From the NCBI GenBank assembly GCA_000091205.1, contig AP006487.2: a stretch of 64,000 nucleotides of DNA; one strand, 5' to 3'. This document shows positions 12,627-63,447 of this stretch, piece after piece; the first letter of the stretch is position 1; each line of letters opens with the position of its first letter. Source of the stretch: Cyanidioschyzon merolae (taxonomy: Eukaryota). A model generated the notes under the pieces. The model was not told where the DNA came from. It did not search any database and saw nothing but the letters and a program-made list of their open reading frames with translations. A program made the translations under genes and the position numbers.

Positions 12627-13436
12627 TTATGCATTGGAGATTGGATTGACAATTATTGGCAACCGTGCTGTAGATTCTCTTGATCCCAGACACCGTGACG
12701 TAGCAATGTATTCCGGGAACGGAATGTGCGTATTTCTGATCGTAACAGCGGGGCGTGTTGCACATCGTGTCCAGAGCACCAGTTCTGTTGTCGCTCGAAA
12801 GTTTAATCGATAATTTCTGAAGCACACTGGAGAGCTGGCATCCCAGCGTCCGGGAATCCTACGAAAAGTTGTTGCACGATGTGCGTCAAGGTAAGAGAGG
12901 CTGTGCAAGCCTTCACAGAGTAGAAGCAATGCGATGCTTAATGGAGTCTTGCATCTCACATTTCGTAAGATTCTTTGGTTTATATGGTTTTCTAGGGAGA
13001 TCCCGGCAAATGAATCAGAACCTTTTTTACAGCTCGTAGATTTTTGCGTTTGCGTCCCTCTCCATCCTCTTTTCGAAAGAATCATGCTCTTCTCGGTCGA
13101 GTTCTTTCTTCCCCTTTCTTTTCTTGGGCATTCAAACGCATTGATCGGAAGGAGACACTGAAGCTTAAGTTTTCTATGTGTGCGATTGCTGTGCCTTGAA
13201 TACATTTTATTCACCTTCTCCGTCGCGAGAATGCCCATGGACCGAAGAGCGACTTTCTGCTCTCTACTGCATACGAGCGGATAGGCAACGAAACTGGTAA
13301 GGACTGGAAACAGCAGAAAATACTTGTCATGAGCGGCGTCACCTGTACGAACTATACTTCTATTGGTCCGGAGGCGTAAAATTGACGCTGAACAACGGGA
13401 AAGTCGCATTCGATTCGACTTTACCCAGGAGGACAC
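12627..13436 (-). CDS. Hypothetical protein, no recognisable domain
   Basis: Only a 269-aa ORF with composition close to non-coding sequence. It may be spurious. Confidence 0.2.
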   Translation of the reverse strand: MSSWVKSNRMRLSRCSASILRLRTNRSIVRTGDAAHDKYFLLFPVLTSFVAYPLVCSREQKVALRSMGILATEKVNKMYSRHSNRTHRKLKLQCLLPINAFECPRKERGRKNSTEKSMILSKRGWRGTQTQKSTSCKKGSDSFAGISLENHINQRILRNVRCKTPLSIALLLLCEGLHSLSYLDAHRATTFRRIPGRWDASSPVCFRNYRLNFRATTELVLWTRCATRPAVTIRNTHIPFPEYIATSRCLGSRESTARLPIIVNPISNA

Positions 13437-14350: not shown

Positions 14351-15720
14351 TTAGAATAAAATGGAATGGGTCCACTTACCTTATTCTGGCATGTAATCAA
14401 ACTCTCTTGGTCTCTTCCAGTTGTGATCAACAACGGACTTTTCGGAGCCTCCTCAGCAACTGCTTCCTTTTCGTACCTCTTATCTCTTCCATTGAAAACA
14501 CCAGCATCTCGTTTCCTCAAGCTCCGCTATTCACTGGCAAAGGGTGACGACGGCAGCGTGAGCGTCCTCATTTCGCAGCCTCCAGTTGTTTTCCCGTGCA
14601 TTTCATGCGCAGGCGGTAGTTGCCATCTCCGCACCCCTAGCCATGAGCATCTTCTTCTCATACTGCCACGATGTGCCCTGTGCAGCGATGGCGCTCGGCA
14701 GGGGTCGCATGACCCTGTGCGCTCACCCCACCCCTCTTTCGAGGATCGTCCTGTAGCGCGTGAAGGCTTCTTCCATCGTTCGTCACGTGTCCTTGACATG
14801 TAAACAGGGTTCCATGCGATGTCTTTCTCCGTTACAACGCGCCCGGCGCCGTTCCCGAATATCACGAGCTTCTTCTGGACGATCCTCACCGCAAACACAC
14901 CGTACGCACACACGTAGGAGTACGCTGTTCCGTTCGGTGGAGGATTTGTGGAGCGCTTCGTAGTTCACGGTGAAACAAGCACCAGAAGTCAAAAGCAGTC
15001 TGCAGAGCAAGTGGAGATATTTCGAGCCGTCTGCGCTCCCTTCGAGCAATGGAGTGACGCACTCTTTATCAGAGGCGATCGCTGCGATGACTCGAGTCCG
15101 AGTCCAGGGCCATATCCCATCCTGGCAGAAGAGACGGGATCTTCCAGGGGCACGTCCCGTAAAGCATACCATGCCGCTGTAGAATGCCGTCTCGTCGGTG
15201 GCCGCAAAGAGACGGGGATCTGTCTCGCGGGTGGAATCGAAGATTAACTGGTATGAGAAATTCTGTGTTCTCGCAGAAGAAGCTTGTGATGGAGTCGCTA
15301 TGCGGTGACGTCGAGGTTGTTTCTCGTAATCGATCCAGTGGCGCAGCGCGCTGCGTTCTCGAGTTGCACTGGGACAGAAAAATCGAACGTCTGCTGGCTG
15401 CTTGCATTCAGCCTGATACACGTAGGAGAGAGAGAAGAGCAGGGCATCGACGTGTGAATGGACAATAATATAGGTTGCTTTACGAACGGTATTCGCGGGC
15501 GTTGCGTTCCATCTTGATACCGGTGAACTAGGGAAGAAAGCGGAAAGGCGTCGAAGGTGACACTCCGAATAAACTACCGAGAACTCCAGAATTAGATGTA
15601 TATCTGTAAGCACTTTCTGTAGCACTTCGAACGCCGAGTTGGTCAATGTCAAAAGTTCCAGAAAAAGGATCGAATGGCAAGATGAAAGCGAGCAGTTCAC
15701 TGTTCCATTTCATTCTGACA
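14351..15720 (+). mobile_element. Repeat family A copy A3, the best-preserved copy
   Basis: 1370 bp. Termini TTAGAATAAAATGGAATGGGTCCAC ... GTTCCATTTCATTCTGACA form an imperfect TIR of about 20 bp (TYAGAATRAAATGGAAY). The left terminus lies in a 35-nt imperfect palindrome centred on GGGCCC. No target-site duplication is visible. Confidence 0.7.
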
Positions 15721-16560
15721 AGGATTTGGGGCTGTTGGAGAAATATTCGCGAGTGCCACATCAACGGATAGGCATCGGGGTTCACCGCGTGGGAAACGTT
15801 TTCCTGGGACTCCCGAGCGTATACGTGCGGACAGAGCTAGTTTAAGCGTTCTGCTCGGCTGCTCAGTTAGTATGGTTTAACATGAACAAGCACGAGCCTG
15901 CATTATTGTGAGGTTCGACCGTGCAGGGTTACGCTGCCGCACTTGGCCCAAACCCCTCCATATTAAAGTGGCACTCAAACAGCACATGAAGTTACTGTGA
16001 GAGTCCTCAATCTTACGATTCAGAATCCAAAATGACTTGGCAGTAACCAGTAGAACGCTGGCGAGGGATTTAGCAGCTTCAAAGAAACTTAGTCGTCGAG
16101 ACGAGGTGCAGCATCACGGAGCCTGCGAACGGAGCTTTGAAGGATCACACAATATCTATGTTCGCGGGATCCTTAATTTTGCAGCGTAGGTTCTTGACGT
16201 GCTAGACGGAGCATCTGAGGGATATGCCCTCAGATACGAAACAGAGTGCGTTTACCGAGCGACGGCTCTGCCGCTTGAGCAGTGCGACCGGTCCACGAAG
16301 CACCCGGGCTTTATGATTGTAACAGGTATAATACGTTTACCAGAAGCGCATCTTTTTGTCTGCACTATTCAGAGACTTTACTTGTGCTGCCAACACTATT
16401 CTTGCAGTGCCGGGCACGAAAGGTTAGTACAATGAAGCGTGCTGTGGAACGCAGCACAGTAGTGCGCAGTAAAAGAGCATATCTTACCGCAACGCACATG
16501 TGCGTGTGTAGCGCCGTCAGGTCCATCATTAACAAAAACTACTCACTAACTACCAACTAG

Positions 16561-17125
16561 ATACCGAATTCGTTCCCCATCTACTGTAAGCGTTGAGAGG
16601 GGGAAAGCTTTCCGTATTTTCGAAAGTTTACCTTCCAGGCGGAGGATCACGCGAGAAGGACGAGTCTTCTGGGCTTGTGTTTCAAGCTCCTCCCAATGCT
16701 AGGTGATGTGGCGCGACTTGAGTGGCTCGTCCACAACGCAGTTTATTCTAGGACTAGGAGCGGGTATCCTGTGTCTGGACTTCGCCCTAGTCGCGGCGGT
16801 CTCCATGTGTATCACTTTGCACTGCCGCAGGCAGTAGGTCTCTCTGTACAGCTTGCGGGCTTCCAGAATGGTAATGAATCCCGATTCCGTTTCGAGTGGA
16901 CCACGCCTCGAGCCGATGCCCTTAACGGTATGGCAAAGCAGTTCTGTTTCTATGTTGCATCCGCACCTGCGCTATAGCCGCTAAGGCGGGTGCTCACGGC
17001 ATGCTCGGCGCACGATAGAACAACGAAACGACCAGTACATGCGAGAGGAATTATGGGTAATGGAACTTGAAGGTAAGGCGCATCATGGTGGACGCTTTCC
17101 CGAAAGCCAACATGGATCCCACAAT
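16561..17125 (+). repeat. Repeat family D copy D1, with a strongly conserved 3' module
   Basis: Homologous to 47925-48485. The 5' half is about 70-75% identical. The 3' roughly 210 nt (16895-17105) are about 95% identical, including CCGCTAAGGCGGGTGCTCACGGCATGCTCGGCGCACGATAGAACAACGAAACGACCAGTACATGCGAGAGGAATTATGGGTAATGGAACTTGAAGGTAAGG. Confidence 0.6.
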
Positions 17126-17601
17126 AAGCGATCCATGATCAATGTAAACCTTTTGTAAAACAAAAACTGAATGGAGCGTGAAAGAGAGCGCTTCGAACGT
17201 TTGGCCTTTACGAGCGGTTCATTGTCGGGTAGACTCTGCTGATGCCGCATGCGGGCGAACTTTGGTTGATAATCCGAACTAGTTATTTCGCCTGAAAGAA
17301 GTCTATTGCGAGAGTGCATATTCACGAGATCCTCTCGCTCAGAGTCTGTGAACACACAAGCAATCAGTTCCGAGGGAATAGTAACTTCACGTGAAACTCG
17401 ATCCCAGCCGATGGCCTTTTCGATTTGCGCGCAAGAGAGTGGAATCCCATACACTGATGCTAGCGACAAGCTTTTGACCGATACCACTGCCTTGTTTACG
17501 AGTAAGCGGCTGTGAACAATGCATAGCATCGATATTTGAATCCTATTGCAAGCTGATTTCGAAGACGCTTGGCGGCAACGCGGTTCCTGTGGATCCCGCA
17601 A
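17083..17601 (-). CDS. Hypothetical protein
   Basis: 172-aa ORF with no recognised motif. Its C-terminal end overlaps the tail of repeat D1. Confidence 0.2.
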   Translation of the reverse strand: MRDPQEPRCRQASSKSACNRIQISMLCIVHSRLLVNKAVVSVKSLSLASVYGIPLSCAQIEKAIGWDRVSREVTIPSELIACVFTDSEREDLVNMHSRNRLLSGEITSSDYQPKFARMRHQQSLPDNEPLVKAKRSKRSLSRSIQFLFYKRFTLIMDRLLWDPCWLSGKRPP

Positions 17602-28131: not shown

Positions 28132-28913
28132 GGATTTATCTAACGCGTGGCTGTGTATGATGGAACAAGTTCCTACAGAAACATCTCGGCTGGAGAGCAG
28201 CTCGAGAAAATTCGGTCCGTCTTCGCTGCCCTCCTGCGTAGCGGCGACGCACTCTCCGTGGGAATCGATAGCTGCAATGCCTGAAGTCGGAGTCCAAGAT
28301 CATTATCCATGGATACAGAGACGACGCGAGCCTCTGCATCCATGTTCTGTTCGAGGGATCATGCTGCCATCGATTACCTCTTCGTCAATGGCCGCAAGGA
28401 GAGGAAATTTTGCCTCCCGAGAGAAAAAGAGATCATCTGAAGTGACGTTTTCAGTGAACTTCCGACATAGGATTGTGAAGAAGGCCTTTGGGGCTATTGT
28501 CGAGCATGATTCCTCTTCAATCCAGCGGCGCACGCTGCGGCGCCCGGGAGTCGCCTTGGAACAGAAAGATCGAAAACTTGAAGACCGCATGATTCGCGCA
28601 TGCCACAAGTGAGGAAAACAGAATCGTGGATGCTTGAAAGTACAAATCGGGTAACTGTATCGGAAGCTTTACGAGCCATTAGTCGAAGGTGCTACGAATC
28701 ACCTTGATTCCTGTGACATACCGAAATCCAGAGGCAGAGCGCCGATGGAGCGCCTCCGAGCCTACGACCAAGAATCCTACGAATACGTATGAATCCGTGC
28801 CCCCTCATTGCTGGCCGTCGAATGTCGGGGCTATTCACTTACCAAAATTTTGGGAAAACGATCAAAAGGCAGGTGCAGTGCGATTAGTATTGTGTTCCAC
28901 AGTGATATGAAAC
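28132..28913 (+). repeat. Repeat B1: a 782-bp segment about 99% identical to 44043-44824, related to family A
   Basis: Five ORFs of identical length occur in both copies, with 1 aa difference each. The internal segment ...SSLPSCVAATHSPWESIAAMPEVGVQDHYPWIQRRREPL is homologous, at about 50% aa in that frame, to family A (...SALPSSNGVTHSLSEAIAAMTRVRVQGHIPSWQKRRDLP). The 5' flank differs from the B2 copy. Confidence 0.7.
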
Positions 28914-29116
28914 AGGTGTGGTGGAATTACGAACCATTGTTCCTGGTTCCGATGCGCACAGCTGCTGAATCAATCCGTTCGATCTCTGAGGGCGTGTTGT
29001 GAAAGTCCGGACACCGCTTTGTTCTGTTGCGCTGGTCTGCCATTCATCGTACACTGCTGAGAAGCGGCGTACTTGCGCCCACAAGCTGATACAGCGGACT
29101 GACCAATGATTACCTC

Positions 29117-31879
29117 ATGAAAGGTTACGCGCCTTCGAGCTACCGATTTCTTCATTACATCGTAGGTCGTGTCGGAGGATCGACTGGGAGGCGATTCTGT
29201 AACTGGGAATGGAAAGCGTTGTTGACGCCTGGTTCCGCGGTTCAGACCCCAGTGCTGGGCCGGAAATCTTTGCCTTCCTGCGTGGCGTTGCTCAGTACTT
29301 ACCGTGGACTGATCAGAAGTGTAGCATGCAGCGAGCACTTGCAACAAAATGCTGGAATTCTGTCTGGAATGCTCGGGTATCGGGGCTTCGGTCGCTTTGA
29401 GCGAGGGGCTACTCCGAGTCGCAACGCACCAGAGGAAGATATTCATCCCGGCAAGCAGTCCACAAAGAGCTCGTCCTCTAGTTCAGGAAGCACCTCAGAT
29501 TCAAAATCCCAAACTAATGCTCAAGGTGAAAACTGGAAGGGTAGAAAGCCAGAGTCAAACGGCGGCGAGCCACAGCAACCTTTCGATATCGGTTGGCTGT
29601 TCCAGTTGCTGCTGGCGGGTGGAATCTTTTACGCACTCAACTCGGGCGAGGGAAACGATTCGTCAGGCAGCGGCACAGGTATGCGACGTGAGATTAACTT
29701 TCAGCAGTTTGTGCGAGATTTGTTAGAGCCTGGTCTTGTCGATCACTTGGAAATCGTGAATCGCCAGACAGCATACGTTTACGTGAAACAAACTTATCAA
29801 GGCGAACCGTCGAAGCGTAGTGCCGGAAGTCGACAAACAGCTGAAGATGTTGTGCTTGATACCGGGGTGGATCAACCCCAGCGAGACGCCCTATGGGAGA
29901 CAAGCGCGCAACCACAGCTCACTGGCGAGGATTACTCTGGCTCAGAATCACCACCAGCTGCCATCCGCCGGCCACGAGGAGATGGAGTTAGCGACTCCAA
30001 GAGACTCAACAGGCCAACTGTCATGTATTACTTCACGTTAGGTTCTGTGGAATCGTTTGAAAGAAAGTTGGAACAGGCGGAGAAATCCCTAGGAATCGAT
30101 CCAATACCAGTCGTGTATCGGTCCGAAAATGCGGGCATGTTCGGAGAGCTACTGAGATTACTACCAACGCTGATCATTCTGGGACTTGGATATGCGCTGT
30201 TTCGCAACTCTTTCTCAGCGTTATCGGGACCCGGAGGTGCTGCAAGAAACATCTTCCAAGTAGGGAAAGCGAATCCCACGGTGATCAAAAAAGGTGCCAA
30301 AGGCAGCGAGCGTGTAACCTTTGCAGAAGTTGCTGGCCTTGATGAGGCTAAGATGGAGGTCATGGAGCTTGTCGATTTTCTGCGGGATCCCAAGAAGTAC
30401 AAGGATCTGGGAGCAAAGATTCCGAAAGGTGCGCTTCTGGTGGGCCCACCTGGAACAGGTAAGACGCTTTTAGCAAAGGCGGTTGCCGGTGAGGCAGATG
30501 TACCGTTCTTCTCTATGTCCGGTTCAGATTTCATTGAGATGTTTGTCGGCATAGGGCCGTCGCGTGTGCGTGATTTGTTTGCGCAGGCTCGACAGAACGC
30601 ACCCTGCATCGTCTTTATAGACGAGATAGACGCAGTGGGAAGAGCGCGCGGTCGCGGTGGTTTCGGTGGTGGCAATGATGAACGGGAGAACACGTTAAAT
30701 GCGCTTCTAGTCGAGATGGACGGCTTTTCTTCGCAGGAGGGCATCGTCGTTCTCGCGGGGACAAATCGGGTCGATATCCTCGACAAAGCACTGCTGCGCC
30801 CGGGGCGCTTCGATCGTCGTATCAATATAGACAAACCCGACATCAAAGGTCGCTTCGAAATTTACAAGGTACACCTGCGGAAGATCCGCATCGCATCCAG
30901 TGCTGGCGGTGTCGAAAACGTTGCTAAGAGACTCGCAGCCTTGACACCTGGCTTCTCCGGTGCAGATATTGCGAATTCGTGCAATGAGGCTGCATTAATC
31001 GCCGCTAGAGCGAACAAAGACAGTGTGGAACTTGCTGACTTTGAGTCCGCTATCGACCGAGTCATTGGCGGTCTCGAGAAGAAAAATTTAGTAGTTCTTC
31101 CTGAGGAGCGAGAGATAGTTGCTCACCACGAGGCGGGACACGCAGTCGCATCTTGGTTCACGAAGCACGCTGATCCATTGTTGAAGGTGTCGATTGTGCC
31201 CAGAGGATCCGCAGCGCTGGGTTTTGCGCAATATCTTCCAAGGGATCGGTTTCTGCAAACCCGTGAAGAGCTTGAAGATTTTCTGGTTGTCGCCCTCGGC
31301 GGGAGAGCGGCGGAAAAATTGGTCTTTGGCCGAATTACGACTGGCGCTCAAGATGATCTTGAAAGGGTCACGCGGCTGGTCTACGCTGCCATTACTCGCT
31401 TCGGTATGTCCAAAAGAGTGGGCACGATATCGTTCAACACAGAGATGGATAGCGATGCACAGTTTCAGAAACCCTTCTCTGAAGAAACGGCAGAAATCAT
31501 CGATACAGAAGCCCGAACGATGGTGGACAAGGCCTATTCGCGCTGTGAAGAACTTCTTCAAGCACATTTGAATGAGTTGAAGGCGTTGGCAAGGCTGCTT
31601 CTTGAGAAAGAAGTTGTCCGTGAGGATGATCTGATCCAAATCTTGGGGTCAAAGCCGTTTAGAAAGGCAGTGGATTACGATTCTATCGTTTCTGCGTTTG
31701 AGAAAGCTCGAGCACAGCGAGCTCCGACAGGAACAGATCATAACAGGAGTCCGTCGGTCAGTAATGACAGCAGAGACGGATCTGGCCCTACCTCCCATGG
31801 TTCAACGAACCCTGACAGGGAAGATCACCCAGACAATTCTGATGGGATTCCGCCCGGACTTATGCCAGAGCTTGCATGA
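29117..31879 (+). CDS. ATP-dependent zinc metalloprotease FtsH (m-AAA protease, AFG3/YTA12-like)
   Basis: 920-aa ORF. AAA Walker [21 protein letters not shown], pore motif MFVG, Walker [11 protein letters not shown], second region of homology, and the zinc-protease HEAGHAV motif are present. An N-terminal TM/acidic linker region is typical of mitochondrial FtsH. The start may lie at an internal Met. Confidence 0.9.
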
Positions 31880-32147: not shown

Positions 32148-33450
32148 TGGGTAATTATATATCTACCCGCAGACGCCTCCCAGTCTTTTTTGACTGGCCC
32201 CCTGTTATCGGTTTCAGCTTCTTCTTGTACACCTCGAGCGTCAAAGGCTGCCCCACGAAGCAGGATTGCGTCAGCTCCTCGTGTCTCGTCTTCAACAACA
32301 CACACCATCTGATATTGACGACGGCGTCGAAATCTTGCTTCACAAACTCCTTGCGTTTGTTGCCTCTGATTGGACTCATCAATGCAAGGATTGCTAGAAC
32401 TCGTGCCTCTGTGCCACTACAGTCACGTCATTGTCCCCTAGACTAGACACCCTCTCTCGCCCATATCCCTTCTTCTTCGTCAATCGCTCTTCTCCGCTCT
32501 ATGGTCGGCGAGAAGAGGATATTTTCGTTGTTTCTCCGACAGCTGGCCACGACGGTCCTCCGGGATCGTCGAATTCCATTTCCATACCTTTGCCATGGAT
32601 ATTTTATTTCTTCAAAATGATCGCACTTCTTCATGCCCTCAAGTGAAAACCATTTCTCAGGGAAGAGCACTTGCTCAAGGAAGGCATAATGTGCCCCGGT
32701 ACAACCGTGTGCTGCAAGCTTCAGCGATTCCCCGAGTGGAGCGATCTCCACGTTTCACGATAGGAAACACATTCCTACGATGGGCTTGAACCACGGAGCG
32801 TATGGAGGAATGAAAAGCAGGTCTGCCCCTATAGCATCCGCAAAAGCCCAAACGCAAGGAGAATGGAAAAATACCACAATTTCCAGTAAAAAAGATATCG
32901 CCAGACGTTGGGAAAAGCCTTCAATGGCTCATTGAATTGGGTGCTGTTGTATGAGTCTTCTATAGGTGCGAAACTGATACCGCCAAACGAATCCACTGCA
33001 GCTGGAACAGATGATGTCGTCGTTCTCTTCGAGTTCGATCATATGTACATCGGGCGCCGTGCACTGCGAATACTCACACACGCTTCGATAGTTTCGCCCA
33101 AAGAAAGTCTCATCGACTACAACAAACGAACCGACGTGCGTGGACGTCATAATGATCGCTTATTTCCTGCAAAGCTTTCATTGTGATTTCGGTGGAAAAT
33201 CGCCGCACTTGAACTAGGACCTTTTTTCAATTGTATTCCAATGTTCACAGGAGCTCACGAGCTAGCTGTCGAGAAAGAGAGATGCCCATTCTGGCTACTA
33301 TCATAGCTTTTGCGTTCCGTAAGCTGATAAACGTACCGTTTTTGTACTATAGACCGAGATCAGTTTTTAGAAATATCTGCTATTGGCGCGGAGCGCATCT
33401 ACTTGTTTCTTTCAGTGTTCCTCAACTATCTGCGTACTGCGGTATACCTG
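32148..33450 (-). mobile_element. Family F copy F2: Tc1-like relic with a TnpB/Fanzor-like 3' fragment
   Basis: Minus strand: MTSTHVGSFVVVDETFFGRNYRSV (first D block) ... QDFDAVVNIRWC ... GQPLTLEVYKKKLKPITGGQSKKTGRRLRVDI, then ...TAATTACCC at 32148. The 5' region at 33380-33430 is homologous to F6 at 40290-40330. Confidence 0.55.
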
Positions 33451-39134: not shown

Positions 39135-40340
39135 TTCTAGGATAGACTAATATCCACCCGCGGACGCCTCCCGCCCTTTTTTGGTCGCTCCCCTACTACC
39201 GATTCCAGCTTCTCCTTGCACATGTAAACCCTAAGAGGCTATCCCACGTGGTTTGGTCGCTTCAGCTCCTTGGGTCTCGTCTTCAGCACCGCACATCGTC
39301 TGATGCTGCTAGCGGCATTGGAGTCCCTGCTCACGAACTCCAAGCTTGCTCTACCTCTGATGGAAGTCATTCACTGAAGGATTCTTCGAACTCGCGCCGT
39401 CAGTGCTACTTCCTGCTCTGTCAGCTCTCCGTGCTTTTCTATCGCAGAAGCGCTCCGCTGGGTTCTCTCCATCTCGACCTTCTGAAGCGTACACCACAGA
39501 GCATCCCCTCGATTTTTAAAACGAACACAGTTGTTTCTGACCTTATAAACGGACATTTCCGGAGGGAGAAGCACTTGCACAAGGAAGACGGGAATTGCCA
39601 CGGTGTCATCGTGTGCTGAACGCCTCAGTGATTTGCCCGGTGGAGCGATCATTACGTTACGCGACCGAAAATCTTTCTCCGATAGGCTTGAACCATAGAG
39701 CGTACGTAGGACTCAACCAGCTCTTCTCCCCGATAGCATCGGCAAAAGACAAAACGCAAGGTGAATGGTGAAATGCCATGTTTCCAGTAGAAAGACATCG
39801 CCAGACGTCAGGGGAAAGTCTTGAATGATTCAAGGAATTGGGCGCTTTCGTATGAGCTTTCTCTACGAGCGAAGCTGATAGCGCCAAATGAATCCACTGC
39901 AGCTAGAACAGTTGGTAAGCTCGTTCTCTACGAGCTCGCTCGTACACCGAACGGACTCCATCTCCGCGAATAACCAAAAACGCTCTCACCGTTCCGTCTG
40001 AAGAAGCCTTATCGACTGGAAAAACAAACCATCGTCCCTCTGCTTCATATCGATCGCCGAGTTCCGAGAAAGCTGTCGTTGCGATTTTGATGGAAGATGG
40101 CCGTGCGTTGACTAGGACTTTTGTTGCGACTGCATTCCAGTGTTTCCACGGCCACACAAATAAGCTGGTGAGAAACAGTGACGCCCCTGGGAGCCTTCCA
40201 TCGTCGCTTTTGCTCTCCATCAGGTGGTCAGCGGGTCGTTTTCTACCATCGACCGCAAGCACGCTTTGAGGGTATCTGTTTTTGCAGAGCAGCGCATCTA
40301 TTTCTTTCTTTCAGTGTTCCTCAATAATCTGAATACTGTG
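39135..40340 (-). mobile_element. Family F copy F6: Tc1-like relic with a degraded TnpB/Fanzor-like 3' region
   Basis: Minus strand: ...WFVFPVDKASSDGTVRAFLVIRGDGVRSVYER (first D block, D to K variant). Its 3' terminus, read on the minus strand, is ...AAGGAGAAGCTGGAATCGGTAG...AAAAAAGGGCGGGAGGCGTCCGCGGGTGGATATTAGTCTA. This matches the conserved F terminal module. Confidence 0.5.
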
Positions 40341-43639: not shown

Positions 43640-44824
43640 GGTCGAAATTTGAGGTTGGCAGTATTCAAGTCTCGATTTCGCAGTTTCCCGCTTCTGTCGA
43701 CGCATTGATGCACATGCGAAAGTTGCGATCTACGCATCTCTTGCTAATTGCATCTTCTTTGTATACAGTCTCGCTGCGTTTTCGCAGCCGTGACATTTGA
43801 TTGCGATCAGATGGTCCGATGTGCTACTCACATTTCCTTCATCGAGTGCCGCAGCATGGCGCGAGAAGGCTTCCTTCATCGCTCAGTACATGGCTTTGAC
43901 GAGCGCAGAAGTATTCCCGCGTTGCACTCCTCCGATTCCGCGGCCGGTACGGTATCCTTCGATCACGGTTTCTTCTGAGCTATCCTTTCAGTGATAAACC
44001 TGTCCGCTGCACACGCAAGCGCACGCTGGTCAGTTCGATCGGGGATTTATCTAACGCGTGGCTGTGTATGATGGAACAAGTTCCTACAGAAACATCTCGG
44101 CTGGAGAGCAGCTCGAGAAAATTCGGTCCGTCTTCGCTGCCCTCCTGCGTAGCGGCGACGCACTCTCCGTGGGAATCGATAGCTGCAATGCCTGAAGTCG
44201 GAGTCCAAGATCATTATCCATGGATACAGAGACGACGCGAGCCTCTGCATCCATGTTCTGTTCGAGGGATCATGCTGCCATCGATTAACTCTTCGTCAAT
44301 GGCCGCAAGGAGAGGAAATTTTGCCTCCCGAGAGAAAAAGAGATCATCTGAAGTGACGTTTTCAGTGAACTTCCGACATAGGATTGTGAAGAAGGCCTTT
44401 GGGGCTATTGTCGAGCATGATTCCTCTTCAATCCAGCGGCGCACGCTGCGGCGCCCGGGAGTCGCCTTGGAACAGAAAGATCGAAAACTTGAAGACCGCA
44501 TGATTCGCGCATGCCACAAGTGAGGAAAACAGAATCGTGGATGCTTGAAAGTACAAATCGGGTAACTGTATCGGAAGCTTTACGAGCCATTAGTCGAAGG
44601 TGCTACGAATCACCTTGATTCCTGTGACATACCGAAATCCAGAGGCAGAGCGCCGATGGAGCGCCTCCGAGCCTACGACCAAGAATCCTACGAATACGTA
44701 TGAATCCGTGCCCCCTCATTGCTGGCCGTCGAATGTCGGGGCTATTCACTTACCAAAATTTTGGGAAAACGATCAAAAGGCAGGTGCAGTGCGATTAGTA
44801 TTGTGTTCCACAGTGATATGAAAC
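43640..44824 (+). repeat. Composite A/B-superfamily member AB2: a diverged A-like 5' part followed by the B segment
   Basis: 43640-44040 is a diverged homolog of the A-family 5' region (GTCTCGATTTCGCAG...GTCGACGCAT...; MAREGFLHRS versus the family A VAREGFFHRS). 44043-44824 is 99% identical to B1. It is followed immediately by the F3 fragment. Confidence 0.6.
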
Positions 44825-44959
44825 CGGTTCGGAATGAGGAGCACGTGCTCGCGCAGTCTGGATCCCCGGATCGAAAGACGGCTTGATGCAGGTGATGACG
44901 CCTTTCGCCTCAATCGTGTTCCACAATCAGATGCGTGTAACCACATGGGTTTTCGCGTT

Positions 44960-45475
44960 GTATGGCAGATGGGTTAGAAGTGCGTTCATTTTCGAAAACA
45001 AAAAAAAATCCAAGGGAAAGGTATGGACGTGAAATTCGGAGGTCCTGAACCGCCGTCATCGCCAGGTTCGAAGACGAAACGAAACAATCCTCTTCTCGTC
45101 GACCATGAACCGAACAAGAGCAAGTAGTGACCACGATGAAGACGAGAGGATATAAGCGAGAAAAAAGTTTTGCCCAACGGGACGACGACGAGACTGTAAC
45201 GACACAGAGGGCGCGGGTTCGAGGAATCCTCGCACTTATGAGATCAACCAGAAGCAATAAACACATGGCGTTCGTGAACCGAGACTTCGACGCCGCCATC
45301 AATATTGAACGATGTGTTGCGCTGAGGAAAAGACCCGAGGAGCTCGCGCAATCTATCATTGTGGGACAGCCTTTCAGGCTCGAAGTGTGAAGGAGAAGTT
45401 GAAGCCCATAGCAGTCGGTCGGTCAAAAAAGGCTGGACAGCGTCTGCGCATGGGTATTAATTTACCCTGCATGGT
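44960..45475 (+). mobile_element. Family F copy F3: solo 3' fragment carrying only the TnpB/Fanzor-like piece and terminal module
   Basis: ...QRDDDETVTTQRARVRGILALMRSTRSNKHMAFVNRDFDAAINIERCVALRKRPEELAQSIIVGQPFRLEV, then AAGGAGAAGTTGAAGCCCATAGCAG...AAAAAAGGCTGGACAGCGTCTGCGCATGGGTATTAATTTACCCTG. The transposase part is missing. Confidence 0.55.
45127..45390 (+). pseudogene. TnpB/Fanzor-like C-terminal fragment (RuvC-III-like NRDFDAAINI) within F3
   Basis: 87-aa ORF ...HMAFVNRDFDAAINIERCVALRKRPEELAQSIIVGQPFRLEV. The D.NAA.NI pattern is the hallmark RuvC-III motif of TnpB, IscB, Cas12 and Fanzor. The upstream zinc-finger cysteines are mutated (STRSNKH). Confidence 0.5.
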
Positions 45476-46589
45476 CGTCGGACATTTTTTGTTCCGCTGA
45501 TCTTGCGTATGCTCTAAATCGGGTACAGCGCCTAAGCGTGTCGGATCGTGATCCCCTACAGACATCGCGCGCGAAGGTACCCCGAATGCAATTACCGCGT
45601 CATCGATTGGGATTCTCCATTCTGATACGGATTGTTCAGCGAATCAGAACAGCATGGTCGTGAAAAAAAACATACGGGCTCTCGGTGCAGAGCTGCGCAT
45701 GCAAATTTCCCCTGGTCGGAAGTCGCACTCGCATGCGGAATGATACAAGATGCCTGAAAACGGAGTTCTTTGGTGTACCACGCATAGCGGACATCTCGTC
45801 CGAGAGCGTCCATGCATACTTACATTCCATTCTTGTCGTATATCGTGGAGATGATGCAGGCGATACAATTTCCGGCCCTGGAAGACGTTGACAAATTGAC
45901 TTGGAGCTTGCCTGGGAGGGCTTCAAGCAGAGCTTGTCTGTTCCGCGGGCGATAGCAGCCTCGTACGATATTCTTGAGGACCGCTTCATACGGTGGTGCC
46001 TTCCGCTATATCGAAACGGAAATCGGCACTGAGCTTGCTTCCGTTTGTTGAGAAATGAACGAGAAAATAAACGAAACTATAAAGCAGGTAGAAGAACAAG
46101 AGCGCGAAGCAGCCCAGTTTCACTTGGCTTTGCCTCCTCGCCAGCGGAAGCACATTGAACGCACTCGTGCTTTCGAAAACGTGTCGATGCTGCATCCAAC
46201 GTTTGACGTTAAGGTACACCAGAGGGGCTAGCGTTAAACCTACGATCCAGTGGCCGCCAACCAGCAAGACCGCGCACAGTAGTCCCTCTGCAGAATATTC
46301 AGGGACAACGAGCTTGTTCAAGTTTTCTGTAAACTCTATCGGATTTACATAGTCTTGTTCCAAATCTTTGCAAAGAATCAAAAACATAATATTTATGAAC
46401 AAAATCCCAACCGTAAGCGTGAAACTTATGAGCCAATACAATATCTGAAAAGCTATAGACATTGCTTCGATTCAACAAGCGAAATTCAATCCTTTACATT
46501 TGGTTGCGCTGTGTACCAAGTAGTCGAAATCAATATGCGATCCATCCTCTGGATCGAAGGCGAATTGCCTGTAGGATATATGTTTTAAT

Positions 46590-47885
46590 GAAAAGTGCAA
46601 GGATAACTGTATTCCTCCTTCAGGTCAGCGATACCACAGTACCTAGATGGTTGAGGAACACTGAAAGAAACAAGTAGATGCGCTCGACGCTAAAAATCGA
46701 TATTCACAAAGCGTACTTAAAGTCAATTTTAGAACAAGACCCGTTGGTAACCTTATGGGACGCAAACGCGACGATAGCAGCCTCAATGGGCGTCTCTTTT
46801 TCTCAACCGCTTATTCGTGTGCGCCTGATAACACTGAGATTCGCTCGCCAAGAAGAGTCCTAGTTCAACCAAAGCTATCTTCCACTGGAATCGCAACGAC
46901 AGCGTTCCTGGAACGTCGCTATCGGTGGGAAGCGCAGGGACATCGGTTTGGTTCACTCGATGTAACTTTGATCTGACCAGATGTTCGGACCGTATATAGG
47001 TATTCGCCGAGCAGGACTCCCATTGTATGCACGATCGAACACGAAGAGAACGACAACATCATCTGTTCTAGCTGTCTTGGACACATTTGGCGGCCTCAGT
47101 TTCGCTCGTCGCGAAGGCTCATACAACAGCACCTACCACTTTGTCGAATCGTTGAAGGCCTTTTCGTTTGCATCCGAGCTTTTGCCAAGTCTATCGGGGA
47201 GAACTACCGTTCATTCCTGCGTACACTCCGTGGTTCAACCTCACAGAAAGAAGTGATTTCTATCGTGAAAAGTAATGAGCGCTCCACTGGGTGAATCGCT
47301 GAAGTCTTCAGCGCGGTGACACACAGGGACATATTTCATCTCTCATTGGCAAATCCGTGTCGCTCAGAGAAGGTCCTGACCTAAGGGCATCAACAATTGC
47401 GTTCATTTGAAGAAAGAAAAAGTCCAAGGGAAAGGTGTGGACATTGAAGTCGAGGATCCTGGAGCCCGGTCATCGCCAGCTGCCGGGAGAAGAAAAATCT
47501 CTTCGCGCGGACCATCGAGCGAAGAAGATCAAGCGACGAAGAAGAGGAAGGAGATAGGCGAGAAAAGGTTACGCCTGACGGGACGATGACGAGACTGTGG
47601 TGGTACAGAAGGCACGATTTCTAGGATTCCTACGAGTCCTGCATCCCAACAACGACAATGCACACAGTGAGCTCATAGGCCGAGACGTCAACGCCGTCAT
47701 CAATATCAGACGATGTGCGGTGCTGGACATGAGATTCGGCGAGCTGACGCAATCCAACTTTGTGGGGCAGTTTCTCAGGCTCGAAGTGTAAGGAGAAGCT
47801 GAAGCCGATAGAAGAGAGCCGTTCGAAACAGACTGGGAGGCGTCTGCAGGTGGATATTAATTTACGCTGGACTGCAAGAACCAAA
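46590..47885 (+). mobile_element. Family F copy F4: Tc1-like relic plus a TnpB/Fanzor-like fragment
   Basis: An HTH-like region (ATIAASMGVSFSQPLIRVRL) is followed by transposase remnants, then a K/R-rich segment (KGKGVDIEVEDPGARSS...KKRKEIGEKR). After a frameshift comes RDDDETVVVQKARFLGFLRVLHPNNDNAHSELIGRDVNAVINIRRCAVLDMRFGELTQSNFVGQFLRLEV. The terminus is AAGGAGAAGCTGAAGCCGATAG...GGTGGATATTAATTTACGCTGG. Confidence 0.6.
47597..47791 (+). pseudogene. TnpB/Fanzor-like C-terminal fragment (GRDVNAVINI) within F4
   Basis: ...NAHSELIGRDVNAVINIRRCAVLDMRFGELTQSNFVGQFLRLEV. It is colinear with the F3, F1 and F5 fragments. Confidence 0.5.
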
Positions 47886-47924
47886 TCTAACCGCTTATTA
47901 GCAACTCCATAACAATGCCGTTCG

Positions 47925-48485
47925 ACCTGTATGTTAAGAGTTGAAAGGGGGAAAAAGTTTCCATATTTTCGAAAGTTTGCCCTCCAGGCACATGGCCCCG
48001 CAAGCCCGACGAGTATGCCGGCGAATGCTTCAAGCTCTCCCTGGTGGCAGGTGCTTTAATGAGATCTAACCAGCTAGTCCGATACGCAGTTTATTTTGGG
48101 ACTAGGAGAGGATATGATATGTCTGAGCGGCGGCCTGGCCGCAGTGGACTCCTAGTATATCGCTTTCCGCTGCCGCAGACAGTACGTCTGTCTGCACAGC
48201 TCTCAGACTCCCAGAATGAATACGCACTTCGAGTCCGTGTCAGATGCACCACGCCTCGAGCCGACGCCCTTAACGGTATGGCAATGCTGTTCTGCCTCTA
48301 TGTTGCATCCGCACCCGCGCTATAGCCGCTAAGGCGGGTGCTCATGGCATGCTCGGCGCACGATAGAACAACGAAACGACCAGTACATCCGAGAGTTAGT
48401 ACGGGGAATGGAACTTGAAGGTAAGGTGCATCATGATGGACGCTTTCCCCGAAGCGAATATCCATCCCGCAATCTGGGATCCATT
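47925..48485 (+). repeat. Repeat family D copy D2
   Basis: Homolog of D1, immediately downstream of the F4 terminus. The 3' roughly 210 nt (48250-48462) are about 95% identical to D1. Confidence 0.6.
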
Positions 48486-48563
48486 GTCAATCTAAAGGTT
48501 TTGTCAAAAACAATTGCTGCGCGGATCGGCCGTGAACATACACGCGTGCCATAGAGCTTATCT

Positions 48564-52662: not shown

Positions 52663-55600
52663 AACCGCTGCGAGTCGCGAGAGCACCAATGTTGGCCCCT
52701 TCTTTCCATGGAGACCGGCAGGATGCAGTGCTGGTTGCGGGCGCGGTTTGTAGCCAGATGACGTGCTGTTCGGGCAATACAGTCTTTGGAGTTGCAAAAA
52801 GCAGTCCGCTGTACTCTTGCAGGTGACTTTTAATGCTGTATTAAGATGCACGGGAAGTGGACCCATCTTAAATGCCTCATCCCTGCTGCGAAGAACAAAG
52901 AACGGCATCGTGTGCACTCGTTGAGGCGATGCAGCTTCGCAGATTCTAGCGAGAATATGATTGTTCTTGAGACGATCGCGAGCTCCTCATAGAGCCCTTC
53001 AGAGCTCGAGTTTCTCTTGAGACTTGCTGTATTCTAATATATCGCTGTGACGCCTATTGCGAGCTGAGATGTGGAAGCGAGCGAGTATATACTTAATAAT
53101 ATTGACTAATGGAACTCCAATCTTGTTTTTCAATTGCCAAGAATAATCATCCGCAGTGTGTATATACGATGCGTGAATCTTGCTGTGTCGATGAGCATTA
53201 GCGTAAAAATGCCTTGCCCCAGGTGAGTATCCAATACTCTCTCTTCTGCATACTGATGTTTTTACCGGAATTCTTCTGCGTATCAGCACGATGCTCGCTC
53301 TGAGTACGAAACGATTACGTCGAAACCTCGTCCGCCACAAAAGCCGCTGAAACCTCCCGAAGCACGTGCCATTTCCGGTAAACGACCGTGGCGTTAATGC
53401 CGCGGGGCATAAAGAGCTCGCGTGCATTTTTGCTCGAGGAAAGACTCCATCGCGAGCCTACCCGCCTCGATATCCCCGCCATCTGATGCTCGGTCAGCTT
53501 CCCGTACACCATCTCGAGCGCCCGGCTCTGTTTCACGCTTTACTTCTCTACCAGTATCAGCGTGCACCCGTGCTCGCCATGCACGTGTGTCGCCCTGAGC
53601 GCATCGGTAGGACTCGCACAGAATCCATTCCTGTACTCGTTCTACGCGCTCATCGAAGGCGCAGGTGTGCAGTCTTTCCATGCATAGCATGTCCAGCGCT
53701 ATCGGCTTGCGCCCAGCAACTCTACCTATGGTTCATTTCCTTGACCATTTCGATGAAGAGTTTCTCGAAAGCGCGATTATTCCTTCTGTAGACACGAAAA
53801 TGTTGGTGATCCCGACACGGTCTCATGTAAACCTGCGAAAGCTCTTTCGCATGAGCCATATTATGGATGAGTAATATCTGGATGCAGCGCACAAAGCATC
53901 CGCCTCTATTCGAGGCTGCCACCACTGCGTCTATGTGGGTCTTGGCGCCATTCTTGTACTTAATCGCGTCTCCTGGTGACCTTCATACCTGACTCCAGAT
54001 AATATCGAGCCTTGAGGAAGCTTAGCAGGGGCGCTTGTGTTCCTTTTGAGGTCTTTGGTTGCCTCCTCTTGAATTGGAGAAACGGCTATGGCCATGACAC
54101 CCTTCAAACAGGGAACAAAGCTTACCACGAAGTCTTTCTCATCATTTGTCTTGAACGGTTGAGAATGGGGCAACTTGGTCAGTTCCGGCAAAGGTATCTT
54201 GAAGTACATGCAAGCGAATATTCAGGGAGTCTCCATTGTCACAGTAAACTTGCGTACATTTTCCCTGTAGACGAGAAACCTTGAACGAGCTCGGCCAGCG
54301 CTCTTCTCGAAGTCATTTGAATGCTTCTTGCTTACAGAGACCAGCAGCAACTAACTACTCGGGCCATGCAATTTAGTAAATAAGTGTCCACCGTGGTATA
54401 CTGGGTCTTTACGTGACGTGCGTGGACCCCATCCAGTAGGCGCTGTATCTCACTTTTAAGAACAGTCTCCCCGATAATGTGTTCCAGTAGGTAGCCCATG
54501 AAAACGGTCCCAGCATTACCTTTCCGCTCCGCGAGTACCTCATTCCTGTCCTTCGTCGTCCTCTTTTCGGAAGTATCTTTCTCATATTGGTCCGGGAGAT
54601 TCTTCTTCTTCCCTTTTCCTTTGGGTTGCTTCAAGGATTTTGTAACTGTACCCCATATCCGTTTTCATCTCGAGACTAGATCATACTCGGTGGACGCTCG
54701 GACTGCATCTCGCCTGTTCTACACATGTGCATAATATTTCTCATGCACCTGTTCGTCGTGATCTCGGTTAAGAGCACGCGCATGGACCGAAGCACGCTTT
54801 TCCGGTCTCTGTTGCGCGCGGATAGAGAAGCAACACATCAGTCCACGGCTGGCAAACGTTAAGAGCAACCGGTCGACGAAAGATTTGTGGAAAACGTTTG
54901 GTGAAAAGGGTGCAAACGACTCGTCTTTTGATCCGTGAGCGTGAAACTGGCTTTAGACAACGGAGGCGAATCCTTCGCCTGGATGGAGCTGCGTAAGAGA
55001 GGCTGGCACGAAGAGCAGCCCCTTGCGCATCCCACCTGCGCACTTGATGAGCGCTTGAGTGCTGTTGGAGCTTGCGTTGACTGGGAGCAAAAAAGAGGAA
55101 TTTTAAAAGAAAAGCCACGAATTTCTTCGAAGAAGAATTTGGTATAGAACAATGCTGTCTGTTTGGCGAGCAGTAGGCGAACGTATGATTGAATCGCCGC
55201 CATGGCTGCATTCGTCGCAAAGCTCGCTTGTCTTGTTATACCGAACAGCGATTTGCTCTTCTTTGACCATCCATATATTGCCCAACAACTTCTCCAACAC
55301 AAATTCCCATCAACTGAAACGCACAATTGTGCCTCAAGTAACATGCGTTCACGTTTCAGTACGAAATTGATTATACGTGTTGTTCAGTGCGTGACGGTCT
55401 CCCATTGAAGTCTGCCATTTCTCCTCTGTCCGTGGCTCTTCATCACTATTCGTATCAACGGTAAGGAAATTTCGCATCCAGTGGCTCCTTTGATAGCACT
55501 TCTCAGAGAACGTATAGAAAGGAATGGAGTGACGAGGAGACTGCTGCGAACACAGAGTTCAATAATTTCTGTTTTGGGAGCACCATGTTGAGGATTCTTA

Positions 55601-55944
55601 CTGCGAGAAGGGTGGTTCTTCAACCTGCTGACCGAAGAATCACTGAACTGCACATGTGAATCCGTTTCTTTCAAGCTTGCATTGAGTGTATAAAGCCCTT
55701 CCGTAACCGTTCCCCTATCTGCAGGATGTACACCTTATGCCGAATGCCTGAAAAAACAAAAACCAAACGGGTGCGTGTTGGTGCATGTGTTCTAGAATTC
55801 TCTGTTCTGTATCTAACGCCGCACATATACCAAAACGTTCAAGCGGAGACTCAGTGCGGCACGCGGAATGCAGAGAGGCTCTGAAAATGAAGCGCATCTT
55901 CAATTTAACTCCAATCCTGGATTCGAATTTCTGAATGAAATTAC

Positions 55945-61317: not shown

Positions 61318-61849
61318 ATTTGCTAGAAGCGAAAACGTCGCTAAACAAGAAGAAAGCTATCGCAAGTGCGCAGACGATTGAATCGCAAGAAGTAACGACT
61401 CTTGACGATCTTTTCCACCAGCTGAGCTTCTTTTCCTCAAGAAATAGAGCCTAGCTTGCTCAAGGTAGTGGAGGCGTTGTCTAGGGCGCTTTCTGCTTGC
61501 GCCAGACGCACCGCTCAGTTGGGATTATTGCCGCCGCAGGTACACCTCCGTTCCTTTTCCGAGGATATGCAAAATGCCACTACGGTTTGTAGTCGTCCAC
61601 GAACCGGTTGCATGGAAGCGCTAGGCTTTTGCGCAGTACGCACAGAAGACGGTAGTGTTGTCCGCTCTGACTGGCTCAGTCTCAGCGAATCATAGGCATA
61701 TGGCGCGCAGGAGAGAGCATTACCACTTGTAAGTTGCTATAGTCATTCAAATCAATTGTTTTCACCCGAGCTGCGATGTATAGCCGGAGATCGTAATCAT
61801 GATGCAGTGTAGAGTACAGACTATAGACGAGCTGCCTGGTGGATCTGTT

Positions 61850-63200
61850 CTTCACTGAAAAGTGCATGGAGGTCTGCATTCCTCCTTCAGCTCAGTTATG
61901 CAACAGGACTCAGATGGCTGAGGAACTCTGAAACAACCAAGAATACGCGCTCCGCGCCAAAAGCCGATATTCTCGAAGACTGGATGCGGTCAATGGTAGA
62001 AAACCACCCGTTGATCACCTGTTCTGGAAGGAAATAGCGACGATAGTAGCCACCATGGGCGACTCTGTTTCCCACCAGCTTGTTCGTGTGGTGCTGAAAA
62101 CTCTAGGGTACAGTCGCTAAAGAGAGTCCGGGTCCACGCATGGCCATCTTCCACCGGCACCAAAATGGCAGCGTTCCTGGAACTCAGCGATCAGTATGAC
62201 GTCCACGGACGTCGGTTTGTTTTTTCCCAGTCGATGCGGCTTCCTTCGGACGAGGCGGTCGGTGCGTTTATGGGTATCCTCGGAGATGGCGTCTGTGCTA
62301 TGTACGAACGAACTTGTAGAGAACGAGCATGTCATCAACTGTTCGAGCTGCAGTGGATTCTTTTGGCGGCCTCAGTTTCGCTCATAGACAAGACACATAC
62401 AAGAGCAGCAACGAATTCGTCGAATCACTGAAGACGGTTCTCTGACGTCTTCTGACAACCCTCTGTTGGACAACGTGACATTTCACGATTCTTCTTGCGT
62501 TCGAGTCTCTGCAGATTCTGTTGGAATAGAGCCGCTTTTCATTCCTCCGTACGCGCCGTAGTTTAACGCCATCGAAGAAGTCTTTCTTATCGTCGAACGT
62601 GGTGATCGCTCCACTGGGCGAACCGCTGAAGCTTTGAGCATATGCTGACACAGGAGCATACTCCTTCGTTGTTTTTCAAATCCTTCTGCCATCGGGAAGG
62701 TCCTCAACTGAGCTCAAAAAACAAGTGCGTTCATTTTAAAAAATAAATAATCCAAGGAACAGTTATGGACATTGAAGTCGAGGATTCTAGAGGCCTGGTG
62801 TCGCCAGGTTCGAAAAAGAAACGAAAAATCCTCTTCTCGCCGACCATCGAGCGAAGGACAGCATATGCTGAAAAAAAAGAGAAAATGAGGTGAGATAGGC
62901 GAGAAAAAGTGTATACCCGACGGGACGATGACGAGACTGTAGTGGCACAGAGGGCGCGAGTTCGAGGACTCCTTGCACAAATGAGCTCCACCAGCTGCAG
63001 TAAATGCTTGGAGTCCGTGAACCGAGATTATAAGGCTGGCACCACTATCAGACGATGTCTGGTGCTATAGACGAGACCCGCGGAGCTGACGCGAGCCAAA
63101 TTTGTGGCGCAGCCTCGTAGGGTCAAGGTATACAAGTAGACGCTGACGCCGACAGTAGGGAGCGGGTCCAAAATGTCTGGAAAGCGTCTACGAATGGATA
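61850..63200 (+). mobile_element. Family F copy F5: Tc1/mariner DD34E relic plus a TnpB/Fanzor-like fragment (CxxC plus a degraded RuvC-III-like motif)
   Basis: Transposase N-terminus ...RQKPIFSKT (compare Tc1 RRKPLLSKK). Second D in LLDNVTFH (compare lvlDNasiH). Exactly 34 residues later comes PPYAP*FNAIEEVF (compare PPYSPDLNPIE), so it is DD34E with an in-frame stop. Downstream: K-rich KKKRK, then RDDDETVVAQRARVRGLLAQMSSTSCSKCLESVNRDYKAGTTI. Confidence 0.65.
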
Positions 63201-63447
63201 TGTACATATCTTGTATTGTAGCGGAGCATTTCCTCTTCCACTGACGATGTATGTGTAAGAACTGTGTTCGCACGTTGCTGTTCATCACAACATCCCGTGC
63301 AAGAGTCGTAGGCCGCAAATGAGGTGATCGCAGTTGTATACAAATTTGTGTAATATCCACAAAAGGTCGCCTGCGCACGCACCCGACTGGGAATTTGAAC
63401 GTCGCGCTTCGTTTCCTGTAATACACCAGGATCGTTTCGAACTTTTC

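Follow-up and report, generated by a model that had tools for sequence, protein, structure and literature searches.

A terminal module in a family of decayed repeats probably represents the 3′ end of an internally deleted Fanzor1-type nuclease gene

The 64,000-nucleotide (nt) stretch of DNA analysed here (the window) contains six copies of one decayed repeat, designated F. The interval at positions 47792-47885, at the end of copy F4, was originally predicted to be a conserved terminal module acting either as a transposon right end or as a scaffold resembling that of an omega-RNA, the guide RNA of TnpB and Fanzor nucleases. We consider it probable, at about 0.8, that this interval is the 3′ end of a decayed, internally deleted Fanzor1-type (eukaryotic TnpB-like) nuclease gene, a gene occupying the right end in an old family of DNA transposons. 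The interval is composite, consisting of an out-of-frame C-terminal tail, the first 30 nt of a non-coding right end and 7 nt of an unrelated repeat. The features of F4 and its surroundings (46456-48513) are as follows, with the evidence for each in parentheses.

46456-47878, plus strand: F4, a copy of the long form ('A') truncated at its right end, with left end, Tc1/IS630-type transposase pseudogene and internally deleted Fanzor gene (blastn to the family consensus, left-end alignment, motif coordinates).
46558-47312, plus strand: DDE_3 (Tc1/IS630-like) transposase pseudogene of F4 (tblastn of the consensus translation).
47437-47789, plus strand: internally deleted Fanzor1-type pseudo-open reading frame (ORF) of F4, in which the beginning, homologous to the N-terminal part of the nuclease (M..E/KV/FEDPGG), is joined to the last ~85 codons (ORF and consensus translations, profile match to SpuFz1, the Fanzor1 of Spizellomyces punctatus).
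47790-47848, plus strand: module part 1 in F4, which codes for the C-terminal tail KEKLKPIEESRSKQTGRRL (consensus KEKLKPIAGGRSKKAGRRL) and is shifted out of frame by a 2-nt deletion at 47788/9 (alignments, translations of relatives, codon-position conservation).
47852-47867, plus strand: hairpin 1 region in F4, GGATATTAATTTACGC (consensus GGGTA-TTTATT-TACCC), the non-coding beginning of the right-end segment.
47868-47878, plus strand: spacer remnant in F4, where neither terminal hairpin 2 nor the CACTGA terminus is present (folding, right-end covariance model, alignment with 16500-16612).
47879-48513, minus strand: unrelated repeat 'U', which abuts F4, is 76.6% identical to 16531-17163 and includes the final bases of the interval, 47879-47885.

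The coding status of the tail, the homology of the copies, the boundaries of the element and its decay are all shown by the sequences. The module was originally placed directly after the equivalent of a stop codon, and this placement does not hold. At the relevant site F4 reads GTGT--AAGG and F3 reads GTGTG-AAGG, compared with GTGT(G/A)CAAGG in the other four window copies and in more than 25 metagenome copies; with the bases restored, the frame is open through the module. It continues as ...EV(C/Y)KEKLKPIAGGRSKKAGRRL in the family consensus, as it does in dozens of relatives from metagenomes. The six-copy consensus likewise reads in frame as ...NRDFNAAINIRRCAVLKTRPEELTQSNFVGQPLRLEVCKEKLKPIAGGRSKKAGRRLRV..., and the frame is also continuous in four window copies. 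The 2-nt deletion in F4 creates a false stop (TAA), and positions 47790-47848 are the last ~20 codons of the nuclease, encoding a basic, lineage-specific tail for which a role resembling nuclear localisation may be suggested.

Conservation at the three codon positions was analysed using 80 metagenome loci, from which 60 non-redundant copies of the region were extracted and anchored on the RuvC-III motif. The values for positions 1, 2 and 3 are 0.84, 0.87 and 0.74 in the RuvC-III region, 0.65, 0.85 and 0.65 in the segment EVYKEKLKPIA, and 0.84, 0.85 and 0.78 in GGRSKKAGRRL. The pattern in EVYKEKLKPIA, where position 2 is kept and positions 1 and 3 vary, is a clear protein signature. After RRL, conservation is flat at ~0.55; there, downstream of hairpin 1, lineages differ by insertions and deletions of lengths not divisible by three, and each has a different predicted C-terminus. 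Codon periodicity as far as RRL, followed by a flat profile with frameshifting changes, leads us to assign 47790-47848 to coding sequence and the remainder of the interval to non-coding sequence. SpuFz1 and distant relatives end soon after an RP..LTR motif, the distant ones at ...IGKIIKR and a stop, which aligns with KEKLK, so that the peptide PIAGGRSKKAGRRL... is an extension specific to this lineage.

Beyond the tail, positions 47849-47878 are the start of a non-coding right-end segment of ~55 nt. In the A-type consensus this non-coding part consists of hairpin 1, a spacer, hairpin 2 (GTGAAACG-TTTTT-CGTTTCAC, a perfect 8 bp) and TGA, and in intact copies the segment runs in this order through the terminal hairpin to TGA and the flank. 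A sharp boundary had been proposed at TAATTTAC. Homology in fact continues for ~35 nt, to ...CGTTTCACTGA, in F1, F2, Fx, F3, F6 and ~20 metagenome copies; the continuation passes the second hairpin and ends in ...CACTGA in five of the six window copies. F4 alone breaks off, because repeat U starts at ~47878. The stretch of F4 equivalent to hairpin 2 folds with a minimum free energy (MFE) of 0, and F4 has the lowest score of all copies against the right-end covariance model (19.4 bits), whereas F3 gives the best match (66.5 bits). The terminal ~25 nt of the right end of F4 have been replaced by the other repeat.

Repeat U is present in the window as two ~76% identical copies, at 47879-48513 and 16531-17163, both on the minus strand. 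In reverse orientation it matches the metagenome locus L074:1031-1625, a sequence with 17-25 occurrences in the fetched loci, which precedes some full-length Fanzor copies by a few hundred nt.

The six copies identified in the window by blastn are 65-75% identical to each other and all are pseudogenes. Besides F4, they are the following.

21258-19835, minus strand: F1, whole copy; module 19942-19884, hairpin 1 19879-19866, hairpin 2 and terminus 19857-19835.
33627-32119, minus strand: F2, whole copy; module 32226-32168, hairpin 1 32168-32149, hairpin 2 and terminus 32141-32119.
40504-39108, minus strand: Fx, whole copy, not numbered in the original prediction; module 39217-39159, hairpin 1 39155-39140, hairpin 2 region 39130-39108.
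44901-45500, plus strand: F3, a complete short form ('S') with left end and deleted Fanzor gene (ATG at 45023); module 45390-45448, hairpin 1 45452-45467, hairpin 2 45477-45500, terminus CGCTGA.
61740-63244, plus strand: F6, whole copy; module 63134-63192, hairpin 1 63196-63211, hairpin 2 and terminus 63221-63244.

The colinearity reported for the module is confirmed, with the string at 47790-47868 in F4 and all six copies colinear in alignment. The first 17 bases of the module, AAGGAGAAGCTGAAGCC, have six matches in the window at no more than three mismatches (0.2 expected by chance): F2 32210-32226, Fx 39201-39217, F3 45390-45406, F4 47790-47806, F6 63134-63150 and one at 13149 that is probably due to chance. 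F1 was described as a more diverged version, which is correct, as its module is too diverged for the 17-mer search and yet aligns with the other copies. A chance resemblance or an alignment artefact would be in keeping with the high divergence of the copies (~70% identity) and with nothing else; the excess of 17-mer matches, the blastn E-values between copies (1e-16 to 1e-151) and 306 tblastn-confirmed relatives in metagenomes rule it out, and its probability is as good as nil.

Special conservation of the module is not borne out. Mean pairwise identity among the window copies is 0.65 over 47782-47839 and 0.53 over 47840-47889, compared with 0.66-0.77 over the transposase part, and the module is no better conserved than the remainder of the element. 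The six copies are alike because they descend from one element, and not because of a special constraint on this stretch in this genome. Among the window copies there is no intact nuclease gene: only ~45 N-terminal and ~85 C-terminal codons are left, with frameshifts and stops. What stands of the observation as first described is a real, colinear string; the stop-equivalent, the sharp boundary, the isolated status of F3 and the special conservation fall away.

Two further features of the window can be distinguished from these copies. Just upstream of F3, 44043-44828 forms a 786-nt duplicate with 28132-28917 at 99.7% identity; the duplication is much more recent than the F copies and could belong to a repeat that was active not long ago, with weaker relatives (~64%) at 4169-4519, 9189-9539 (minus strand) and 14756-15106. 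Outside all F copies, 55111-55695 (minus strand) contains a further DDE_3-like transposase relic, which is much more diverged, at 24% tblastn identity with the consensus of the F transposase.

Judged by sequence profiles, the nuclease family is of the Fanzor1 type. The assignment is made because a profile built from 15 full-length relatives finds SpuFz1 (8GKH) with E=3.5e-9 over profile positions 252-602 (~350 positions) and the Fanzor1 of Guillardia theta (9CER) with E=4e-4, and because one distant relative comes nearly to the threshold of PF07282 (Cas12f1-like TNB). The likeness of the upstream fragment to TnpB and Fanzor, which had been recognized from the start, is thus upheld, with a RuvC-III motif of the form (R/N)RD(F/V)NAAINI. 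Its consensus is NRDFNAAINI, the motif varies hardly at all in 32 relatives, and in F4 it is GRDVNAVINI (47681-47707). Searches of Pfam and the Protein Data Bank (PDB) with the window fragment or a chimeric full-length protein returned nothing, or a sub-threshold PF07282, and single sequences likewise gave no PDB or Pfam match.

A search of a large protein collection with the consensus C-terminal fragment identified 81 relatives, all of them short ORF fragments and nearly all from a handful of Joint Genome Institute (JGI) metagenomes; the same tail is translated in many of them. In subfamily 'B' there is a uniform, fixed stop after ...GRRLHVSWRRFV, the translation ending in ...KVELYEKKLEAVVGGRSKKTGRRLHVSWRRFV. 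Longer fragments bring in a RuvC-II segment (IDEFRTSY), and a contig brings in RuvC-I (GADSGN). A second search, using an assembled full-length query, identified relatives of 580-750 amino acids (aa) and more distant proteins at ~30% identity. Full-length versions are found only in metagenome relatives, for example L053:4614-6896 and P0083 (752 aa). The former locus (also L037, L061) holds a near-full-length Fanzor copy with a 532-aa ORF, a frameshifted C-terminal part and the N-terminus MNTKFEDPGG. With a tail more like the A-type than the B-type, it is a possible representative of the lineage from which the deleted gene of the window copies came.

The window belongs to an intron-poor eukaryotic host and is gene-dense, with ~50% G+C and long uninterrupted ORFs. 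Its genes are of eukaryotic type and include those for an NIF/CTD-like phosphatase, a WD40 protein, a CAT-type amino-acid permease and a chalcone-isomerase-like protein. At 29117-31879 (plus strand) a 920-aa FtsH protease is encoded, and the identical protein occurs on contigs of JGI sample 3300050361 and ENA ERZ27247228; the organism of the window is therefore the contributor of Fanzor loci in those metagenomes.

Several forms of the element can be recognized. The left part of the long form carries a Tc1/IS630-type transposase, and the Fanzor gene lies downstream on the same strand, with ~45 N-terminal codons (M..FEDPGG) fused to the last ~85. In every transposase-bearing copy seen, the Fanzor gene is internally deleted. 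The short form, of ~0.6 kilobases (kb), has the ~85-nt left end of the long form joined straight to the deleted Fanzor gene; it has no transposase and shares both ends with the long form. F3, in which the module was said to be kept even in a solo fragment, is a complete element of this kind, and the form recurs at no fewer than eight independent metagenome loci, with identical internal junctions (among the loci are L016, L019, L025, L035, L041, L050 and L084). It resembles a miniature inverted-repeat transposable element or the 'ghost' loci of SpuFz1. Full-length Fanzor copies have a homologous tail and no transposase within 4 kb upstream. Their conserved sequence reaches ~145 nt further 5′ and ~50 nt further 3′ than that of the long and short forms (A/S), with a right-end sequence of ...GGCGTTGGTG. 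The A/S termini correspond to internal sites in the full-length copies, between GTA and CAGTC and between CCACTACTG and TA.

A transposase gene on the same element raises another explanation, in which the module is the transposase-binding right terminal inverted repeat (TIR) of a Tc1/IS630-like transposon and is unrelated to the nuclease. The long form does encode a DDE_3 transposase (PF13358 in Pfam, E=7e-18, obtained with the family consensus translation and not with F4 itself), the termini (C/T)AGT...ACTG recall Tc1 ends, and TA lies right before (C/T)AGTC in about half of the copies, the left flank often being ..TTA. These terminal letters are nevertheless all that the left and right A/S ends have in common. 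Local alignments of left and right ends gave scores reached by 11 to 300 of 300 shuffles for single copies and by 716-1248 of 2000 shuffles for the consensus, in inverted and direct orientation, and inverted-repeat searches inside each copy found nothing convincing. Nor is there a TA duplication at the right end, where the base after CACTG is A and the next one varies, without a consistent TA. The module is translated in relatives and is shared with transposase-less full-length Fanzor elements, and is not simply the TIR-proximal end of Tc1 relatives that lack a TnpB-like part, the outcome against which the original prediction had been set. Together, the dissimilar ends, the missing TA duplication and the presence of the module in transposase-less copies lead us to reject the TIR explanation as highly improbable.

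Other searches concerning the ends were also negative. A left/right match noted by eye, TAAATTAATATCCACCCGCAG and TAAATTCATTTTTTCCACCCGAG, failed the inverted-repeat and shuffle tests, no target-site duplication was recognised at the flanks of A/S copies, and a fuzzy motif scan for paired ends yielded only noise. Among the fetched loci there were no 'empty' target sites, in which the flanks of a full-length element would be joined without the element. The flanks do show biases in composition: 5′ of AGTC.. there is a T-C-T-T-(A/C)-(T/C) bias in 12-17 of 21 copies (e.g. window 61734-61739), and 3′ of CACTGA, past one variable pyrimidine, a (C/G)-A-(T/C) bias in 13-14 of 24 copies (e.g. window 63245-63248). 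A target or TAM-like preference may lie behind these biases.

The most serious alternative concerns RNA. It holds that the module and the following ~55 nt of intact copies are the template for a guide-RNA scaffold overlapping the last nuclease codons, and that long and short elements are 'ghost' carriers that depend in trans on full-length Fanzor copies at other genomic sites. The module lies where an omega-RNA would lie, at the 3′ end of the nuclease gene and ~10-65 nt from the right end of intact copies, as in characterised systems, where the scaffold sits between the end of the ORF and the right end (PMC10432273; PMC10530073). The scaffold of the Guillardia theta nuclease, GtFz1, overlaps its last 17 codons, and 134 ghost loci in the Spizellomyces punctatus genome keep ends and scaffold without the ORF (PMC10432273). 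This positional argument of the original prediction is sound, and ghost-like derivatives have precedent. The deletion derivatives here retain the last ~85 codons and the 3′ end at eight or more independent loci; all A/S copies derive from a single deletion event, however, so that retention of the 3′ part counts as one observation.

Direct tests of RNA structure on the A-type right end do not extend this support to the module. Zero covariation was found inside it, and its first ~59 nt are protein-coding; the only helix possible in this coding part, CCGGTC/GGCTGG, is 77-84% paired with no two-sided change in 53 sequences. For hairpin 1 (GGATATTAATTTAC..), 66-71% of cells are paired, as against 29-52% with slid partners, and covariation is absent: the observed score was reached by 50/500 and 231/500 shuffles. 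The paired fraction of hairpin 2 is 73%, compared with 33-50% in its slid controls. In the MAFFT alignment it has 17 double-change cells with 11.3 expected (47/500 shuffles; range 47-66/500), and in an alignment fitted to the covariance model 24 with 14.6 expected (12/500; range 12-21/500). This covariation is suggestive, weak and non-robust, falling inside the tool's own stated false-positive range, and the hairpin is located outside the originally proposed boundary and is missing in F4. Many changes in hairpins 1 and 2 that appeared 'compensatory' by eye were not upheld by shuffle controls.

Other approaches gave a similar picture. RNAalifold on untrimmed alignments predicted 0 pairs for the A-type, and 13 pairs without covariation for the B-type. 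The MFE z-score of the whole 3′ region (-0.5) is no better than that of a coding control (-1.7), and such whole-region scores are uninformative because the coding control scored as low. There is no asymmetry between sense and antisense strands in the A-type hairpins, a comparison of stability that is confounded by the G/U-rich composition of the coding tails. Searches against Rfam 15 were negative, both for the whole window at the gathering score and, at E<=1, for 44900-48000 and five relatives, although Rfam may lack Fanzor omega-RNA families.

A different situation is found in the full-length B-type relatives (L040, L047, L048, L056, L063, L065, L078 and others), in which the stop is followed by ~70 nt of conserved non-coding sequence ending in a 9-11-bp hairpin. 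This terminal hairpin is 84.4% paired compared with 78.9±0.9 in shuffles and has 18 double-change cells compared with 6.2 (0/500 shuffles); its mean z-score is -1.68, and the sense strand is more stable in 25 of 26 copies. It occurs as two sequence variants with stems in different register (CGTCGTTCGA/TCGAACGGCG and CAGCGTTTTTC/GAAAGGCGTTG). The B-type post-stop hairpin is the best omega-RNA candidate of the family, and counts in favour of the scaffold explanation. It has no counterpart in the A/S ends, and its covariance model, R1, has no match in the window, from which it is absent.

Several results do weigh against a purely coding account of the interval. The codons GGC CGG TCN AAA AAG NCN GGG AGG CGT CTG keep most of their third positions (mean 0.78), and distant relatives (~30% identity) end ~15-25 codons earlier. 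The tail could be a read-through into former 3′ non-coding or omega-RNA sequence, leaving room for overlapping RNA constraint. Furthermore, per-copy folding shows the hairpins to be more stable than dinucleotide shuffles, with mean z-scores of -1.05 for hairpin 2 and -0.72 for hairpin 1 compared with -0.13 for the flank; as the copies are not independent, these scores mainly say that the ancestor had hairpins.

Weighing these points, with the perfect terminal hairpin of the consensus and its hint of covariation on one side, and on the other the absence of that hairpin from F4 and of the well-supported B-type hairpin from the A/S elements, we regard the guide-RNA scaffold as an unlikely explanation of the interval. 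The chance that the module itself was under RNA-level selection is roughly one in five. By analogy, the 3′ end of the active ancestors may plausibly have had an omega-RNA role: that end would have been the transposon end and, as in other Fanzors, probably also the omega-RNA template. A bolder version would make the A/S elements Fanzor1 guide-RNA 'ghost' carriers, and the family would owe its spread, in part at least, to RNA-guided cleavage with copying into related targets and not to the DDE transposase, with the tail a read-through into the omega-RNA template. It draws on the lack of inverted repeats and target duplication, the subterminal hairpins, the biased outside bases and the internal position of the ends in full-length copies, and appears more doubtful still. 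The element is best described as an ordinary repeat fossil, and within the originally proposed coordinates the F sequence has the behaviour of coding sequence with one unremarkable hairpin. Of the original interpretation, the likeness to TnpB and Fanzor and the position of the module are retained, and the case for an RNA scaffold in this stretch is not.

These findings have some wider significance. A Fanzor1 lineage is documented in an intron-poor eukaryote and is abundant in a set of JGI metagenomes. It has three element forms (full-length nuclease, transposase with deleted nuclease, and short ghost), and its full-length members carry a structured, covarying hairpin in the 3′ non-coding sequence. 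A general lesson is that a block which looks conserved and seems to follow the stop of a decayed TnpB-like gene can turn out to be coding sequence shifted out of frame by a small deletion, and that colinearity among repeat copies is not evidence of constraint. Should RNA data reveal an omega-RNA, the short and long derivatives would exemplify a natural separation of guide-RNA carriers from the nuclease that they serve.

The family can be compared with four known systems. The general layout is similar in ISDra2 TnpB, whose omega-RNA scaffold shares sequence with the 3′ end of the ORF and extends as far as the right end; the element has subterminal hairpins and lacks inverted repeats. ISDra2 is a bacterial IS200/IS605 element with a Y1 transposase, whereas the host here is eukaryotic and the partner is a DDE transposase, and PDB searches gave no sequence match. 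Mariner/Tc1-associated Fanzor1 elements were reportedly described by Bao and Jurka in 2013. They too carry a Fanzor gene together with a DDE transposase of the Tc1/IS630 type, both encoded by one strand of a single element; the family described here differs in that transposase-bearing copies have a deleted Fanzor gene, full-length Fanzor copies have no transposase, and neither a TIR nor a TA duplication was found. Associations of Fanzors with Mariner/Tc1 transposases have been documented, as has an overlap between the right inverted repeat and the RNAs of Fanzors (Jiang et al. 2023, PMC10530073).

GtFz1 is also a Fanzor1, matched by our profile (9CER), and its overlap of omega-RNA and last codons is the arrangement originally proposed for F4. 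That overlap was demonstrated by sequencing protein-bound RNA, whereas the corresponding part here has a coding signature only, with no covariation. In SpuFz1, 30-nt inverted repeats are present, the stop codon precedes a 75-nt scaffold, and the omega-RNA has been proven by RNA-seq (Saito et al. 2023, PMC10432273). By comparison, the present family has no detectable inverted repeat, and its ORF tail is ~20-40 codons longer than in SpuFz1 and distant relatives; SpuFz1 ghosts have no ORF, whereas the derivatives here keep ~130 codons. What the family does share with SpuFz1 and 'ghost Spu-1' is the nuclease family itself, a gene at the right end of the element, multiple decayed copies, and short derivatives that retain both ends together with the region adjacent to the right end.

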